Part shown: positions 2,728 to 60,409 of the stretch, in pieces
How the letters are laid out: each line of letters opens with the position of its first letter
Position numbering within the stretch: position 1 is the stretch's first letter
Assembly (NCBI GenBank): GCA_951406725.2
Contig: OX597826.1
Location: 55,800,001-55,864,000, forward strand
Source: Octopus vulgaris
Lineage: Eukaryota
DNA: 64,000 nucleotides
Direction of reading: 5' to 3'
The notes under the pieces: model-generated
The model's input: the letters and a program-made list of their open reading frames with translations, nothing else
Database searches by the model: none
What the model was told of the DNA's origin: nothing
Translations under genes and position numbers: made by a program

Positions 2728-3300
2728 TAAGCGAGCTGGAAGAATCCTTCGCAATCCGGGCAAATATTTAGCCGCACTTCGTCCGTCCTTGCGTTCTGAG
2801 TTCAAATTCCGCCGAGGTCGACTTTGCCTTTCATCCTTTCGGAGTCGATAAAATTAAGTACCAGTTTCGCACTGGGGTCGATATAATCTACTTAATCCGT
2901 TTGTCTGTCCTTGTTTGTCCTCTCTGTGTTTAGCCATCTGTGGGTAGTAAAGAAATAGGTATTTCGTCTGCCGCTACATTCTGAGTTCAAATTTCGCCGA
3001 GGTCAACTTTGCCTTTCATCCTTTCGGGGTCGATTAAATAAGTACCAGTTACGCACTAGGGTCGATATAATCGACTTAATCTGTTTGTCTATCCTTGTTT
3101 GTCCTCTCCGTGTTTAGCCCCTTGTGGGTAGTAAAGAAATAGGTATTTCGTCTGCCGCTACATTCTGAGTTTAAATTCCGCTGAGGTCAACTTTGCCTTT
3201 CATCCTTTCGGGGTCGATGAAATAAGTACCATTTTGAACACTAAGATCGATGTGGTGGACTTATCCCATTCAGCAGAATTGCTGGCTTTGTACTAATATT
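2728..3300 (+). mobile_element. SINE family B, trimeric
   Basis: Head GCGAGCTGG..GAATC, then three Meta-like units joined at AAAGAAATAG|GTATTTCGTC. Confidence 0.9.
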
Positions 3301-29604: not shown

Positions 29605-30032
29605 TTTCTTATTTCTTTACTGCCCACAAGGGGATACATATAGAGGGGACAAACAAGAAGAGACAAACAGATTAAGTCGATTACATCGACCCCAGTGCGT
29701 AACTGGTACTTATTTAATCGACCCCGAAAGGATGAAAGGCAAAGTCGACCTCGGCGGAATTTGAACTCAGAACATAGCAGTAGACGAAATACCTATGTCT
29801 ATTTCTTTACTACCCACAAGGGGCTAAACACAGAGGAGACAAACAAGGAGAGACGGACGGATTAAGTCGATTACATCGACCCCAGTGCGTAACTGGTGCT
29901 TATTTAATCGACCCCGAAAGGATGAAAGGCAAAGTCGACCTCGGCGGAATTTGAACTCAGAACGTAACGGCAGACGAAATACGGCTACGCATTTCGCCCG
30001 GCGTGCTAACGTTTCTGCCAGCTCGCCGCCTT
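29605..30032 (-). mobile_element. SINE family B dimer, with older B fragments at 29300-29605
   Basis: Head GGCGGCGAGCTGGCAGAAACGTTAGCACGCCGGGCG and two Meta-like units. Confidence 0.92.
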
Positions 30033-41016: not shown

Positions 41017-42000
41017 AGGCGGCGAGCTGGCAGAAACGTTAGCACACCGGGCGAAATGCGTAGCCGTATTTCGACTGCCGTTACGTTCTGAGTTCGAATT
41101 CCGCCGAGGTCGACTAAGCTTTTCATCCTTTCGGGGTCGATAAATTAAGTACCAGTTGCGCACAGTTGTCGATGTAATCGACTTAATCCGTTTGTCTGTC
41201 CTTGTTTTTTCTTTCTTTGTTTAGCCCCTTGTGAATAGTAAAGAAATAGGTATTTCGTCTGTCTTTACATTCTGTGTTCAAATTTCACCGAGATCGACTT
41301 TCCCTTTCATCATTTCGGGATCGACAAATTAACTACAAGTTTCGTAGTGAGAACGTTCTAGTTGACTAGCCCCAACTCCCCAACATTTCGGGCCTTGTGC
41401 CTAAAGTAGGAAACAATATTTACATAGCACAATAAGGCGGCGTGCTGGCAGAATCGTTAGCACGTCGGGCGAAATGGGGTAGCTGTATTTCGTCTGCCGT
41501 TACGTTCTGAGTTCAAATTCCGCCGAGGTCGACTTTGCCTTTCATCCTTTCGGAGTCGGTTAAATAAGTACCAGTTACGCACTGGGATCGATATAATCGA
41601 CTTAATCAGTTTGTCTGTCCTTGTTTGTCACCTCTGTGTTTAGCCCCTTGTAAAGAAATAGGTATTTCGTTCGCCGCTGCGTTCTGAGTTCAAATTCCGC
41701 CGAGGTCGACTTTGCATTTCATCCTTTGGGGGTCGATAATTTAAGTACCAGTCACGCACTGCGGTCGATGGAATCGACTTAATCCCTTTGTCTGTCCTTG
41801 TTTGTCCTCTCTGTTTGGCCTCTTGTGAGTAGTAAAGAAAACGGTATTTCGTCTGTCTTTGCGTTCTGAGTTCGAATTCCACCGACGTCGACTTTGCTTT
41901 TCTTCCTTTCGGTGTCGATAAATTGTGTACTGGGGTCAATGTAATTGACTGGGCAACTCTCCGAAAATTTCGGGCCTTGTGTCTAGAGTAGAGAAGAAAA
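41017..42000 (+). mobile_element. Two adjacent family B multimers (dimer 41017-41415, trimer 41435-42000)
   Basis: Two heads AATAAGGCGGCG.GCTGGCAGAA and five Meta-like units. Confidence 0.9.
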
Positions 42001-48060: not shown

Positions 48061-48618
48061 TTCTTTTATTCTTTTATTTGTTTCGGTCATTTGACTGCAG
48101 CCATGCTGGAGCACTGCCTTTAGTCAAACAAATCGACCCCAGGCCAAAGACATCTGGAAATTATCCACAATAGTTTCCGGCCAGAAAATCCTCCGGAACA
48201 GACTAACCAGTTCGTTCTTGTCGGCGCCCAGAGGCTCCTCGAGAACATCGTCGCACTTCCCCGTCATTAATCCTCTATAATTTTTATAAATCCTTAAAAT
48301 TCTAAAGCATCCAGGACTAATAATAATAATAATAAAAAAGTAATAATAATAATAATCCTTTCCACTATAGGCACAAGGCCTGGAATTTGAGGGGTGGGGG
48401 AATAATCGATTGACTGGTTCTTTATTTACCGATCCCGAAAAAATGAAAGGCAAAGTCGACCTCGGCAAAATTTGAACACAGAATATGATGAGAGACGATA
48501 TGCTGCTAACTATTTCGCTCGGCGTGCTAACGATTCTGCCAGATGATAATGATGATGCTAGTAATAATGATGAAGATGATGATGATGATGTGATGATGAT
48601 GAGGAGGAAGACAACGAC

Positions 48619-48851: not shown

Positions 48852-49246
48852 ATATATTTCTTTACTACCCAGAAGGAGCTAAACAGAAGAGACAAACAAG
48901 GACAGACAAACGGATTAAGTCGATTACATCGAACCCAGTGAACTGTTACTTAATTTATCGACTCCGAAAGGATGAAAGGCAAAGTCAACCTCGGCGGAAT
49001 TTGAACTCAGAACGTAACGGCAGACGAAATACGTATTCCTTTATTACCCGCAAGGGGTTAAACATAGAGGGGACAAACAAGGACAGACATAGGTATTAAG
49101 TCGATTACATCGACCCCAGTGCGTAACTGGTTCTTAATTTATCGGCCCCGAAAGAATGAAAAGTCAACCACGGCGGAATTTGAACTCAGAACGTAACGGC
49201 AGACGAAATACGGCTACGCATTTCACCCGGCGTGCTAACGTTTCTG
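48852..49246 (-). mobile_element. SINE family B dimer
   Basis: Two Meta-like units on the minus strand. Confidence 0.88.
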
Positions 49247-49914: not shown

Positions 49915-50029
49915 ATAATAATAATAATAACAACAGCAACAACAATAATAATAATAATAAAAACAACAACAACGACTACTACTACTACTACTATTACTAC
50001 TACTACTACGAATACTACAATAATAATAA

Positions 50030-50153
50030 TAATAAATGCCTTGATGCAGTACCAGGCAGTTACCCTCATGGCTTCTCATCTTAACTGATTGGAAGTGTTA
50101 TCATGTACATTGTTTTTTCTTGGTATAAAAGATGGGCTACAGCAAATATTCTG
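50030..50153 (-). mobile_element. Probable 3' end of a non-LTR element with a (TAT)n tail
   Basis: A unique segment runs directly into (TTA)n on the minus strand. No protein motif visible. Confidence 0.3.
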
Positions 50154-50486
50154 GGTTTTGTCGAACTTCTATCGAAAATTCCCCATGACAGACAGCTGAT
50201 AAAAACTGATACAAACACATATGTAGAACTCTTTTAAAATTCCCAAAAGTCTAAAGCCGGATAAAGGACTTTAGGAAGGCTTTTCATTAATTATAAAGCA
50301 TCAGACGAGGCGCCTGAATAAGCCGAGCCTCTCAAAATCCAAGGTAAGTGACCTAATTCCATTTTGTTTTCGAATAAACATGGTCGCTTTCAGAGTGAGG
50401 TGTGTGAATATTTGTAGCCTGATGTCAGCATGGAAGCAAGTTCACTTGCTAAATGACCCCAGGCCGCTCGATTTAGATGTGGCAGC

Positions 50487-50541
<55 letters not shown>

Positions 50542-55467: not shown

Positions 55468-56083
55468 TAATCTTTTCTACTCTAGACAGAAGGCCCGAAA
55501 TTTTAGAGGAGGGTGGGCCAGTCGATTAGATCGACCCTAGTACGCAACAGGTACTTAATTTATCGACCCCGAAAGGACAAAAAGGCAAAGTCGACCTCGG
55601 CGAAATTTGAACTCAGAACATAAAGACAGACGAAATACGGCTAAGCATTTTGCCGGCGTGCTAACGCTTATTATTTATTTATTGCCCACAAGGAGCTAAA
55701 CATAGTGGGGACAAACAAGGACAGACAAAGGGATTAAGTCGATTAGATCGACCCCAGTGCGTAAGTGGTACTTAATTTATCGGCCCCGAAAGGATAAAAG
55801 GCAAAGGCGACATCGGCGAATTTGAACTCGGAACGTAGCGACAGACGAAATACCTATTTCTTTACTACCCACAAAGGGCTAAACACAGAGGAGATAAACA
55901 AGGACAGACAGACGGATTAAGTCGATTATATCGATCCCAGTGCGTAACTTGTACTTTATTTGTCGACCCCGAAAGGATGAAAGGCAAAGTCGGCCTCGGC
56001 AGAATTTTAACTCAGGAGATACCGGCGGGCGAAATGCGAAGCACTTCGCCCGGCGTGCTAAGGTCTCTGCCAGCTCGCCGCCT
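55468..56083 (-). mobile_element. Family B cluster (dimer plus monomer)
   Basis: Three Meta-like units on the minus strand. Confidence 0.88.
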
Positions 56084-56139: not shown

Positions 56140-56860
56140 TCCCCGTTAGCAATATAAAAAAGCGTACATTTTGCACCAAAAACCTACATGAGACTTCCTT
56201 TCATGGTGTCTACCGCAGTAAAGTTTGTTCTAACAGAACAACGACGTTTCAGTGCGGATATTAAACCTAGGTATTAAAACTGCTTCTGTCTCTAGTAAAT
56301 ATTATCTTTCAAGTATCCTCATAACAAGTCTGATGGTGTGAGGTCCGCTGAACACAAAATGTATTCTACTGAACCTGTGTCTCCACACAACCTGTTTTTT
56401 AATATCTCATTAAAGTAGGCACTTTCATTACTTTGGTAGAGCTAGTGATCCAAAAATACTGGAAATAAAATTCAACATTTTCTAATTCCGTTGAATGCAT
56501 GACATAAATAGTTGTTACAGCAATTTCAAGTAAATTGAGCCAGTCACACTGCCGTAAAAAAAGAATGGTCCGACTTAATTTTCTGATAAACCGCATCATG
56601 GGAAACCAATACGATGTCTCTCTGTAATATGCGGACTCTCAGATGCCCAGTGGATGCGACTGTAGCGGATAACTGCGCTATTCTACACATCTTGCCAAGT
56701 GCTACTCACGAAATTCCACTTTTCGGTCCCAGTCATCGTTATTGACATTATGGAATATTCTTGGAATGTGGCCGACCAACAGGTCGCTGGAACAATAAAT
56801 GTATTTCGCCTCAAAGAAACGAACGCAAATTTCGTGTACCGGTTGCATCTGGTTAGACAC
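56140..56860 (-). pseudogene. Decayed Tc1/mariner-superfamily transposase
   Basis: Minus-strand peptides across frameshifts: IHWASESPH, GPFFFYGSVTGSIYLKLL, EFYFQ, TGSVEY..SADLTPSDLL*GYLKDNIY. These match the WxxxNPH, GPFFF, FQQD and SPDLTPxDFFLWGYLK motifs. Confidence 0.75.
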
Positions 56861-57053
56861 CACATAGGTGGATAATTATTTTGCGGCGAGAAGTTTATTG
56901 CTAATGCTTTTGCAGTATTGATGCTATCTGAACGAGTTTACATCCATTCATCCATCCATCTATCTATATACATACATACATACATACATACATACATACA
57001 TACATACATACATACATACATACATACATACATACATACATACATACATACAT

Positions 57054-58309
57054 CAGAGCCATTGATCTGAAAACCAGAAAAATACTAACAAGCACACACA
57101 ATCTCCATATGAACAGTGACGTAAATCGCCTCTACTTAAAACGAAAACAAGGCGGCAGAGGCTTAACATCGATCAAAAATGCCTTTGAATGTCGCATCAT
57201 ATCCCTTCGGCAACATCTTTTAAACACCAAGTGTCGAAGTGCATCCCTTGACCAAGTTTACATACATGAGGCTGATAACATCATAAGACTAGGAAGGCAG
57301 CTCCTTGAGCAACACTCTTTGTCTGATAACCTAGAACACATGCCCAAAGAAGTCGCACGACTCTACCGCAATGTGTCATCAGACGAAAAGATGATCCAAA
57401 ATGAGCAGAATCCTATACATGGGTATGTTAGTAGAAAGCTCTATGATGATAGTAACATCGATCATCAAAACAGTTTATCACGGACCAATAGCCGGATTAC
57501 TACCTCCCACTTTGAAGGGTATTCGTTTGCATTCCAGGAGCAGGAAATATCAACCAAGTGCTTGATGCACAAAAGGGATATAGATGCAGGAAAAGCCGTG
57601 AAATGTGACGACCGATGCAGACTTTGTGGAGTTCACACTAAAGATATCACACACATCATAAGCAGTTGTCCGAAAATGTTATCACTGAGGAAACATGACG
57701 TCGCTAGGGTACTCTATAATGACATCCGTCGGAAGGATAATCCCGTGGACAACGAAATAAGAACCCACAATATGGTAGAAGCCATAGCTACTCATAATAA
57801 AAAGGAATACTGGTGAAATGTACCAGTGAAGACCTCAATAAAATATAAGCACAACAGACCTGATATAATGATTTGGGATGGAGAGGGGAAGCCGTCAACG
57901 TTTGGAGAAATTACCTGCCCAGCAAATGTTAATATAAAGCTGAAAAAGAGAAAGCCTGTGTTGAACTATTGAGAAATCTGCAATTACTCTAACCAGATTA
58001 CAAGTTCGGGTTTATACATGTAATTATTGGGGCCCTGGGATATAAAACACACTGCCTAAATACCAATCTTCAGAAATTAGGCTTCTCGAAACCAGAAAGG
58101 AGAAAGCTAATCCGAAGAGTATAGATCCAATCCATCACTGGAACTGTAAAAATCTGGAAAACTTTCCAGAAGTTTATCATTTAAATATGTATAAACATGA
58201 CAAGATATGCAACTATAGGCATGAGAATACATATATAAAGCAAAACATACAAATCTGCACATACATACATACATACATACATACATACATACATACATAC
58301 ATACATACA

Positions 58310-58342
<33 letters not shown>

Positions 58343-58454
58343 GCAAGCAAAAATAACCTGTTGTTGATTGTGAAATTCCAGTGAAGGAGCCTTGGATCTA
58401 GGTTAGAAACTGCTTCTTTCTCTGCAAGAAATCTTGAAATAAACTGAATAATGA
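57054..58454 (+). mobile_element. R4/Dong-clade non-LTR retrotransposon (RLE type), 5'-truncated copy 1, in (TACA)n
   Basis: IDLKTRKILT..H.NSDVNRLYLKRKQGGRGL (post-RT thumb region), CCHC knuckle CRLC..DITHIISSC, KHD, and after an in-frame stop the RLE motif HNRPDIMIWD. The 3' UTR has internal (TACA)n and a terminal segment of about 108 bp. Confidence 0.9.
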
Positions 58455-58591
58455 CATACATACATACACACACACATACATACATACATACATGCATACA
58501 TACATACATACATACATACATACATACATACATACATACATACATACATACATACATACATACATACATGCATACATACATACATACATAC

Positions 58592-59655
58592 ATAAAGCTG
58601 AAGATCAGTGAAAAAGAGAATACCTACGCTGAACTATTGGGAAATCTACAGTTACTCTATCCAAATTACAAGTTCAGGTTTATACCTGTAATTATTGAGG
58701 CACTGGGGCATGTAACACACTGCTGAAATACCAAACTCGAGAAATTGTGCTTCTCAAACCCAGAAAGGAGAAAACTGATTCAAAAACTACAGATCCAATC
58801 CATCACTGGAACTGTAAAAATTTGTACAACTTTCCATCATTTAAGTATATATGAGCATGTCGAGGTATGCAAATATAAGCATGAGAAGACATGCATAAAA
58901 CAAAACTTACAAATCTGCACACATACATACATACATACATACATACATACATACATACATACATACATACATGCATGCATACATACATACATAAATACAT
59001 ACATACATGCATACATACATACATACATACATACATACATACATACATACATACATACATACATACATACATACATGCATACATACATATAATAATAATA
59101 GCTGCACCCTCGTTACACGAGAAAAGCCATTGCCAAGAAGACTTACTGAAATTATTCATTGTTGTTGCTATTTGATACCCTTATATGACTTTTAAGCCTA
59201 GCCAAGCTTTTACACAATTGTGCTGGCTGGTAGGAGAAACAGGTGCCACCATATGCACTCTCTTAACATGTCTTTTTAGACCTCCAACTGAGAGGCACAC
59301 CCTTTCACGTTTTACACATGTTCTGTTGTGAATTTTAAAAACCACATCGTTGTTTATCAAGGATAGATTTCTGTGAAATTTCTGATGGCTCACCAGGCCT
59401 GCACGACTCAAACACCTCTTCCCACAAACCGCACACACACAAAAAGCAACATACATACATACAAAAATACATACATACATACATACATACATACATACAT
59501 ACATACATACATACATACATACATACATACATACATACATACATGCAAAAATACCGTTGTTGATGTCGAAATTCCAATGGAGTAGCCTTGGATATAGATT
59601 AGAAACTGGCTCTTTCTATATTGGTAAGAAATCTTGAAATAAAACTGAATAATGA
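58592..59655 (+). mobile_element. R4/Dong-clade copy 2, more 5'-truncated, head-to-tail with copy 1
   Basis: KLKISEKENTYAELL..FIPVIIEALG (RLE C-terminus); same 3' UTR, internal (TACA)n and terminal segment (59545-59655). Confidence 0.88.
59091..59450 (-). mobile_element. RTE-type LINE 3' fragment nested in copy 2
   Basis: Minus-strand CAVCGKRCLSRAGLVSHQKFH plus a second degenerate finger (RVCLSVGGLKRHVKRVH), typical of RTE C-termini; (TAT)n tail. Confidence 0.7.
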
Positions 59656-60409
59656 CATACATACATGCATACATACATATATATGTTCATATGCATACAC
59701 ATATAAATACGTACATTTATAGATGCGTGTGTGTGAAAATATACGGTATTTATACGTATCCCCTAAACATTAGCAATATCGATGCCTAATTCTTTCATAA
59801 AACCACCATGTTCATCAGTATCAACGCAGCTTATGCTTAAACGCGTAACTCTAAGTAGCTTAAAAGGGAATATATAAGTCATCATAGATTATAAGCAAGT
59901 CTATCTATCACCATTAAATTTGCTATTGAAACAATCAATTTCAGCATTATATGAAAATAAACATCGTGTGTTTTATTGAACTAATTTTACTGCATATGCC
60001 ATGAAGTAGATCTATATTCATTAATAATTAGGTTGAATGCAGCATCGTGAATAAAATCCAGTGGCAACATACACTACATATCAACAGTTTAATTTTAGTT
60101 TCCTCTATAATCTTGAAGGGGAATCTACATAATAGTATTAGCAGAAACATTTATTTCTTCTTTGCCGTATTAGCCTTTTTTCTTTACATTATGTATGGAT
60201 TCACCAGGACACATCAGCAATGGTATTCATGAAGTCAGCAGGTCTTTCCAAGTCAGTTACCTTTTCCCAGAAGACCCAGGAAACCCAGAGGAGCCATGCG
60301 ACCCACGCGATCAAGCCGGGATACACGAAGCCCTAACTTGTGTACATTTAGGATTGTCTTTCCTGGGCTCGTAATGATAATTTGTTTCTTCTTTTCAGCA
60401 TACACTTAA

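Follow-up and report, generated by a model that had tools for sequence, protein, structure and literature searches.

A high-copy R4/Dong-type LINE of Octopus vulgaris with (TACA)n as its likely target and a probable (TACA)n tract carried in its 3' untranslated region

Retrotransposons with a restriction-like endonuclease (RLE) serve as a model for site-specific insertion and are under development as gene-writing tools. Among long interspersed nuclear elements (LINEs) of this type, those of the R4 clade are mostly target-specific (PMC4640811), and Dong elements target (TAA)n (PMC7998251, PMC3812793). Dong-R4 elements are abundant in octopuses (PMC13282606, PMC8967140, PMC9115989), amounting in Octopus vulgaris to 92.7 Mb in 51 families, 5 of them recently active (PMC13282606), and a Dong with a full open reading frame (ORF) is present in the Octopus bimaculoides repeat library (PMC9115989). 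The accessible text of these three papers states no target for them. The octopus annotations also differ from the present description in giving neither a 3' structure nor an inner tract, and the words "target" and "TACA" each have 0 occurrences in the accessible text of PMC13282606. Here, we analyzed a 64-kb stretch of O. vulgaris DNA (64,000 nucleotides of contig OX597826.1, from position 55,800,001; hereafter the window) in which the + strand at 57052-59655 contains the 3' ends of two copies of an R4/Dong-type LINE, both decayed and truncated at the 5' side. The element very probably belongs to the annotated octopus Dong-R4 families.

The closest described systems share some of the features found at this locus and lack others. 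Dong of Bombyx mori, DongAg, DongBg, and Darwinula Dong1/2 resemble the octopus element and its relatives in their single ORF, reverse transcriptase (RT), CCHC motif, C-terminal RLE, microsatellite insertion, and 5' truncation. In contrast to Dong, the octopus element lies at (TACA)n and some of its relatives at (TACT)n. Its clade is distinct and well supported, and its untranslated region (UTR) contains an internal tract that resembles the target. R2, known from the R2Bm and R2Tg structures, is homologous in RT and RLE, but it targets 28S ribosomal DNA and has N-terminal zinc fingers and a Myb domain, whereas the relatives studied here gave no N-terminal zinc-finger match. Waldo belongs to the R1 clade, and a TACA-type target common to Waldo and the octopus element would be convergent. 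WaldoAg1, WaldoAg2, and WaldoFs1 insert into ACAY microsatellites, including (ACAT)n, but they are insect elements with an apurinic/apyrimidinic endonuclease (APE) (PMC3812793). Retroelements that carry or seed microsatellites are known as well, namely RTE and Alu/L1 (PMC3812793), and an octopus RTE has a microsatellite in its 3' UTR (PMC9115989); in those cases, nothing is said of the carried repeat being the target of the element's own endonuclease. In the literature searched, neither an R4/Dong element that targets TACA or TACT nor the hairpin described below had been reported, and subscription papers, Repbase, and Dfam may hold the target. The octopus element probably represents a known clade with a target new to it, and it probably carries a tract of that target.

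Two copies of an R4/Dong-type LINE

Both copies follow the same order, in which a TACA tract, the body of the element, its UTR, a second TACA tract, and a terminal segment of ~105 bp are followed by TACA again (Table 1). An initial annotation of this DNA had described two copies, each placed after (TACA)n and ending in GAATAATGA and then CATA/TACA, with the layout ORF end, UTR, (TACA)n, and terminal segment, and this description holds for both. The inner tract of copy 2 is likewise present as described, but it is interrupted by a 359-bp reverse-strand insert that the annotation did not contain. We estimate a probability of about 0.74 that these are two independently decayed, 5'-truncated copies of a high-copy LINE that likely inserts into (TACA)n by target-primed reverse transcription (TPRT), and whose 3' UTR likely has three parts, namely a short proximal piece, (TACA)n carried by the element, and a terminus of ~105 nt with a likely RNA signal.

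The proposed R4/Dong-like identity of the body is supported by its CCHC and RLE motifs and by profile matches to R2. The closest protein among 1.84 billion representatives is XP_052833275.1 of O. bimaculoides (74%), and the nearest named long homologues come from Argonauta hians (55%) and from insects (31-35%). Copy 1 contains the motifs CRLC..H....C, RKHD, RPD, and EITCP, with an N as second acidic residue, which is consistent with decay, and copy 2 retains the RLE motif EK..Y. A CCHC knuckle followed by a PD-(D/E)xK restriction-like endonuclease is the arrangement expected at the C-terminus of an R4/Dong protein. When a profile of the C-terminal 199 positions was compared with solved structures, R2 proteins ranked first (E 0.001-0.03), the R2 RLE being matched at E 0.001. 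RVT_1 was found in 9/9 long homologues, with zf-RVT as well, and four related loci (L001, L004, L006, and L008) have single ORFs of 1,150-1,220 codons. A single ORF with the RT upstream of the RLE and no APE was seen in the relatives only, the window copies being truncated behind the RT core.

At the N-terminus of the long homologues, no C2H2 or Myb Pfam match was obtained at E<=0.5; the R4/Dong clade is described as having no N-terminal zinc fingers and a divergent Myb/SANT-like N-terminal motif (PMC7998251). Residues W21, P57, and L67 are invariant between the relatives and an R4/Dong-like protein of B. mori, which we take to be Dong-like, and a motif W..Y..G..L..W..P is common to this protein and the full-length relatives; the region is absent from the window. 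In both of the trees built, the window copy and the O. bimaculoides protein form a pair within a 14-15-row clade (support 100/100), to which the TACA- and TACT-flanked relatives also belong, together with metagenome and Argonauta proteins. This clade is separate from R4/Dong-like proteins of Bombyx, Diaphorina, and Coccinella in both trees, in one of which the window row covers 38% of the columns. Because neither tree includes a verified Dong, R4, or Rex6 reference or an outgroup, the R4/Dong placement rests on domain layout and similarity. In a search of sequencing runs, five organism labels contained 0.23-0.49 of the words of the body and no RNA run was listed as containing it, and protein-alignment scans of viral and genome contigs returned no relatives.

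Target repeat and 3' end of the element

Same-strand TACA arrays of at least 5 units cover 448 of the 61,200 bp outside the locus, and because this is only 0.7%, two 5' junctions in TACA would not be expected by random insertion; the locus was chosen for its TACA look, which bears on this chance estimate. Related loci offered a further view of the junctions. Fourteen were collected from metagenome contigs of about three data sets, and 11 of them extend at least 150 nt beyond the ORF. Seven of these 11 have a visible 3' tract, which is (CATA)n in L004, L006, L008, and L013 and (CTTA)n in L002, L003, and L005 (L002 and L003 being one family); the remaining four end without a tract, and none of the 11 ends in TAA. 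Since (CTTA)n is the same repeat as (TACT)n, the relatives' targets differ from TACA by one base. A 5' flank is visible in five loci, as TACA in L004, L006, and L008, TACT in L001, and TAA in the truncated L005, so that in four of the five the sense strand reads TACA or TACT at this side. TACA lies at both ends of L004, L006, and L008, which are full-length families found in a metagenome, and the same repeat thus borders both sides on the same strand in these three and in 2/2 window copies. The 3' flank starts with C-W-T-A in 6/7 relatives and in both window copies, while L006 has TATA before its first CATA. Dong in the strict sense inserts into (TAA)n; here, the window junctions and the 3' tracts of 7/7 relatives are TACA or TACT instead. 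Target-site duplications are unreadable within a repeat. The claim that the octopus element targets (TACA)n, made in the initial annotation, is supported mainly by the relatives with TACA at both ends and by TACA-bordered public copies, and the whole branch likely reads (TAC[A/T])n instead of Dong's TAA.

The terminal segment belongs to a very large family. A 145-bp terminal stretch, including 16 and 15 nt of TACA flank, was searched against three DNA runs with three organism labels and matched 6,471 (X1), 5,858 (X5), and 5,999 (X9) contigs. The share of contigs continuing into unlike sequence was 0.01 in each run, and 1,096-1,181 run over the ends; the terminal segment is nearly always bordered by TACA in these public runs. 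Summed depth, which is not a copy number, peaked at 1.8-2.1 million versus 34-86 for the long pieces listed, and the order of magnitude that the data suggest is, at most, tens of thousands of copies. At position 58340, ~85% of the depth reads C, which means that TACA adjoins the segment. The majority letters of the public contigs restore TACA through 58347, so the start of copy 1's segment lies at ~58349 and not at 58347, where it had first been placed. Head-to-tail terminal-TACA-terminal joints were present among the matches listed (four in X9 and three in X5, one contig each) and fit either terminus-only inserts or nesting into the inner tract.

The 326 RNA reads found on the terminal segment (X22) run in both directions at similar frequency, 241 of them being below 90% alike, and do not show that the element is expressed. 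Exact terminal-segment patterns had no match in metagenome, prokaryote-genome, or viral contigs, and blastn of 58200-58460 had none in plasmids. In Rfam, only matches under the gathering scores were obtained, to microRNA families and nearly all on repeats. Two other classes were considered for the segment and set aside: a tRNA-derived short interspersed nuclear element (SINE), of which only a partial B-box look-alike was seen by eye, and a miniature inverted-repeat transposable element, for which inspection by eye revealed no terminal inverted repeats.

A structural feature of related families points to the probable position of the true 3' end. Five of them have a hairpin, NCC-UU-G[stem-loop]C-Y-GGN, 37-49 nt before the 3' tract; within the window's clade, it is present in each of the 5 families whose 3' end is visible. 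The hairpin is the fold of minimum energy in 5/5 families and has no matching Rfam family. In an alignment of seven rows (the five relatives and the two window copies), 88.9% of the cells pair and 5/9 pairs change on both sides; the covariation score was reached by 0/500 shuffles, and slid controls gave 29-44% pairing. The motif CCTTG-N15-CYGG has a single exact match in the whole window, at 59586-59609 in the terminal segment of copy 2 (0.24 expected), and a looser form matches both terminal segments and nowhere else in the window; segment 1 reads CTGC where the public-contig majority is CCGG. The distance from motif to junction is 41-46 nt in the window versus 37-49 in the relatives, and neither proximal UTR of the window copies contains the motif. 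Since the motif sits in the terminal segment and is missing ahead of the inner tract, the element's true 3' end is probably this segment, and the inner TACA tract is probably a carried, derived feature. That the element carries its target in its 3' UTR, as first proposed, is therefore likely from 2/2 copies and the conserved 3' motif, although homology of the motif in the window segments is suggestive only. The terminal segment likely holds an RNA signal bound by the element's protein.

Some further features were observed at the locus and in its surroundings. The proximal UTR of copy 2 (58845-58920) has a more stable predicted fold than its shuffled versions (z -3.0; for copy 1, z -1.0) and may contain a second structure before the inner tract. 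Within the inner tract of the same copy, CATACAAAAATAC at 59451-59470 resembles the start of the terminal segment, possibly as a result of slippage duplication. The insert at 59090-59448 encodes two C2H2-like fingers (zf-C2H2_4, E 0.0025, under the curated cut-off) and is probably the 3' end of an RTE-type LINE; it would fit the C2H2-finger octopus RTE of PMC9115989. Among the relatives, full-length L004 (~138-160) and L006 (~124-146) have a 5' UTR motif in common, GGACGTGTGGATTAYCGCT, with a partial match in L001, which is possibly part of a promoter or ribozyme, and the 3' UTR of L006 (4100-4400) contains several imperfect direct repeats (GCTACCTAGCTTG / AGTCGTGGTTTAGTT blocks). No further body or terminal segment was detectable in the window; a look-alike of the terminal segment at 56267-56295 is weak (blastn E 0.019; nhmmer E 1.1), has no adjoining TACA, and was treated as chance. 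A repeat of 177-190 bp in short tandem runs occurs at many sites (2794-3231, 29610-29982, 41485-41922, 48855-49212, and 55500-56060) and is probably a common octopus SINE-type family. Short non-repetitive pieces at (TAA)n or (TAC)n tracts (48140-48320, 50020-50240, and 50250-50540) resemble the 3' ends of other LINEs; an RLE-like end seen by eye at ~48140-48260 was not confirmed by tblastn.

Table 1. Features of the two window copies and of related loci
Feature	Position	Strand	Remarks
(TACA)n tract, 5' flank of copy 1	56968-57053	+	Putative target; from sequence
Copy 1 decayed ORF end, 1.13 kb, 5'-truncated	57052-58184	+	Stops and a frameshift; stop TAA 58182-58184; region after RT core, CCHC knuckle, RLE motifs RPD..EITCP and VIIGALG
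Copy 1 proximal 3' UTR, 74 nt	58185-58258	+	Without the clade's 3' hairpin motif
Copy 1 inner (TACA)n tract	58259-58348	+	Likely element-borne; TACA 58259-58339, degenerate to 58348
Copy 1 terminal segment, 106 bp	58349-58454	+	Ends GAATAATGA; likely true 3' end
Decayed match to hairpin motif CC-TTG-N15-C-Y-GG	58389-58414	+	In copy 1 terminal segment
(TACA)n tract between the copies (3' side of copy 1, 5' side of copy 2)	58455-58594	+	
Copy 2 ORF end, 5'-truncated	58592-58844 (from 58592/58595)	+	Last ~83 codons; RLE EK..Y and PVII.ALG
Copy 2 proximal 3' UTR, 76 nt	58845-58920	+	Without the clade's hairpin motif
Copy 2 inner (TACA)n tract	58921-59546	+	Split by foreign insert; TACA 58921-59089 and 59449-59546
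Unrelated 5'-truncated insert, 359 bp	59090-59448	-	C2H2-finger-like ORF end, (TAT)n tail
Copy 2 terminal segment	59547-59655	+	Ends GAATAATGA, then CATACATAC
Short (CATA)n 3' flank of copy 2	59656-59680	+	
Conserved hairpin of related families	L002:2694-2728, L004:3945-3978, L005:4056-4089, L006:4405-4438, L013:1052-1085		
TACT tracts of sister families	L001:401-476, L002:2770-2853, L003:3748-3824, L005:4134-4161		

Competing explanations and opposing evidence

The LINE might instead end in ...TCTGCA with a TACA tail, the terminal segment being a separate unit that seeks TACA and is very abundant (either a very small non-autonomous element or the end of another, sister family of Dong), and the two piling up in the same arrays. 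Such a unit would fit the extreme abundance of the segment, the existence of terminal-TACA-terminal joints, the fact that linkage to the body was seen only twice, the TACA end of L008 without a hairpin, and the resemblance of GGTTAGAAAC to what we take to be the B box of RNA polymerase III promoters. However, the order is the same in 2/2 copies while 0/11 other arrays adjoin a terminal segment, and from the 95% upper bound of ~0.24 per array we calculate a chance under ~0.06 for two such coincidences. A separate unit is also at odds with the hairpin, which is present in all 5 clade families with a visible 3' end and absent from the body UTR, with the lack of a tRNA-like head (no ARAGORN match in the terminal segment), and with the TACA that adjoins the 5' edge of the segment in most contigs. 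The initial annotation had regarded terminal segments found mainly without a body as a sign of a separate element; this was too strict, because 5' truncation inside the inner tract yields bodiless segments too. Overall, we give the separate unit a minor chance.

It is considerably less probable that TACA is only a tail or slippage product, with copies inserting irrespective of sequence and persisting passively in repeat-rich DNA. Although TACA at the 3' side alone cannot separate tail from target, some copies have only ~12 nt of TACA, and passive build-up near CA repeats has been proposed for Drosophila Waldo-A/B (PMC3812793), this explanation has to face TACA or TACT on the same strand at the 5' side of 2/2 window copies and 4/5 relatives, three full-length families included, when same-strand arrays make up 0.7% of the remaining window. 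As the two copies are adjacent, in the same orientation, and of the same layout, they could also derive from one old local duplication, which the initial annotation had named as an outcome that would undo its proposal. They are identical at 189/226 positions of the ORF part, 60/74 of the UTR, and 90/103 of the terminal segment (81-87%). A local duplication is unlikely because the 5' break points differ and copy 2 mostly has the majority letters: at the seven positions where copy 1 departs most strongly from the public contigs, copy 2 has the family-majority state at six (by eye), and the single departure common to both sits at a CpG. It is also disfavored by the dispersed, very high-copy nature of the terminal segment, carried by ~6,000 contigs per run. 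The two copies are in all likelihood separate insertions, and we consider the duplication hardly credible.

Several results weigh against the preferred reading, a LINE that carries a (TACA)n tract and a ~105-nt terminus. Linkage of body and terminus was observed in the 2 window copies only, an inner tract is present in 0/7 relatives with a visible 3' tract, and a search of gene calls for a chance ORF spanning terminus, tract, and UTR, which would have spoken for linkage, gave no candidate. Neither window segment was reported by a covariance model of the 5 relatives alone (14 other matches, best 14.1 bits), in a sequence matrix they took ranks 265 and 325 among 127,940 (top 0.25%), and local alignment was notable for L002 and L005 only (top 0.3-13.5% of tiles); by tblastn, the top matches of the matrix (50437, 47556, and 51646) are no R4/Dong ends. 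The inner stem has ~4/6 pairs in the octopus, the predicted folds of the window terminal segments are no more stable than those of shuffled sequences (z 0.13 and -0.02), and the controls lean toward the hairpin because the structure was spotted by eye on the same sequences. L008, which lies outside the clade, has no hairpin and ends in TACA, and (TAA)n is found at the truncated 5' end of L005. About three data sets supplied the relatives, most of whose contigs stop inside the tracts. In the public runs, most contigs are short and, among the matches listed, 43-87 contigs per row leave TACA after ~12 nt; among the RNA reads, 32 show a copy flanked by (CATG)n, and of all 326, 72% continue unlike the stretch.

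Possible mechanism, self-seeding, and significance

R2 elements insert by TPRT with binding of the protein to a structured 3' UTR, and the mechanism outlined here is modeled on the biology of R2 and R4 elements. Nicking by the RLE would occur in the strand that reads (TGTA)n, and the 3' flank would consequently begin at CATA. Reverse transcription would start at the terminal segment, the hairpin being the likely binding signal, and continue through the inner tract. The complementary DNA (cDNA) would often be cut short, and its end would anneal to the upstream TACA by microhomology. The ATA reported earlier at the 5' junction of copy 2 is indeed present (58592-58594, on comparison with copy 1; AATATAAAGCTG versus TACATAAAGCTG) and might reflect such a step, three AT-rich bases being weak evidence. 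Truncation at the inner tract would be favored because the cDNA of this tract is fully complementary to the upstream target, and every insertion that extends beyond the terminal segment would bring in one more TACA tract.

In the initial annotation, such additions were thought to form a feedback loop contributing to the many TACA arrays of the window. The window gives no support to this extension: 0/11 other merged TACA arrays adjoin a recognisable remnant, many of them adjoin TA or CA runs as a possible mutational source of TACA, and the only insert seen in an inner tract belongs to another family. The loop is unproven as the source of these arrays, and in the window the element's input of TACA is minor relative to arrays of other origin. 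By simple arithmetic, 30,000 inner tracts of 100 bp would provide 3 Mb, a tenth at most of the ~28 Mb of TACA expected if the ~1% found in the window is typical of the 2.8-Gb genome. A bolder scenario, tentative and on balance doubtful, is self-seeding. An octopus family of a hitherto undescribed R4/Dong clade with (TAC[A/T])n as target may have put the target of its own endonuclease in its 3' UTR; longer insertions would then plant landing sites and annealing of the cDNA would favor truncation, leaving tens of thousands of ~105-bp terminus-only inserts, nested stacks, and a measurable gain of TACA.

The element assigns a likely target to part of the abundant Dong-R4 content of cephalopods. 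The one-base differences between targets (TACA and TACT, versus the TAA of Dong), together with a common hairpin, provide natural pairs for the study of target and template choice by RLE elements. A high-copy unit of ~105 bp could also be misfiled as a SINE by repeat pipelines. The microsatellite richness of the octopus is not demonstrated by this window to be explained by the element; should the inner tract serve as a target, the family would be a direct case of a transposon making its own safe sites.

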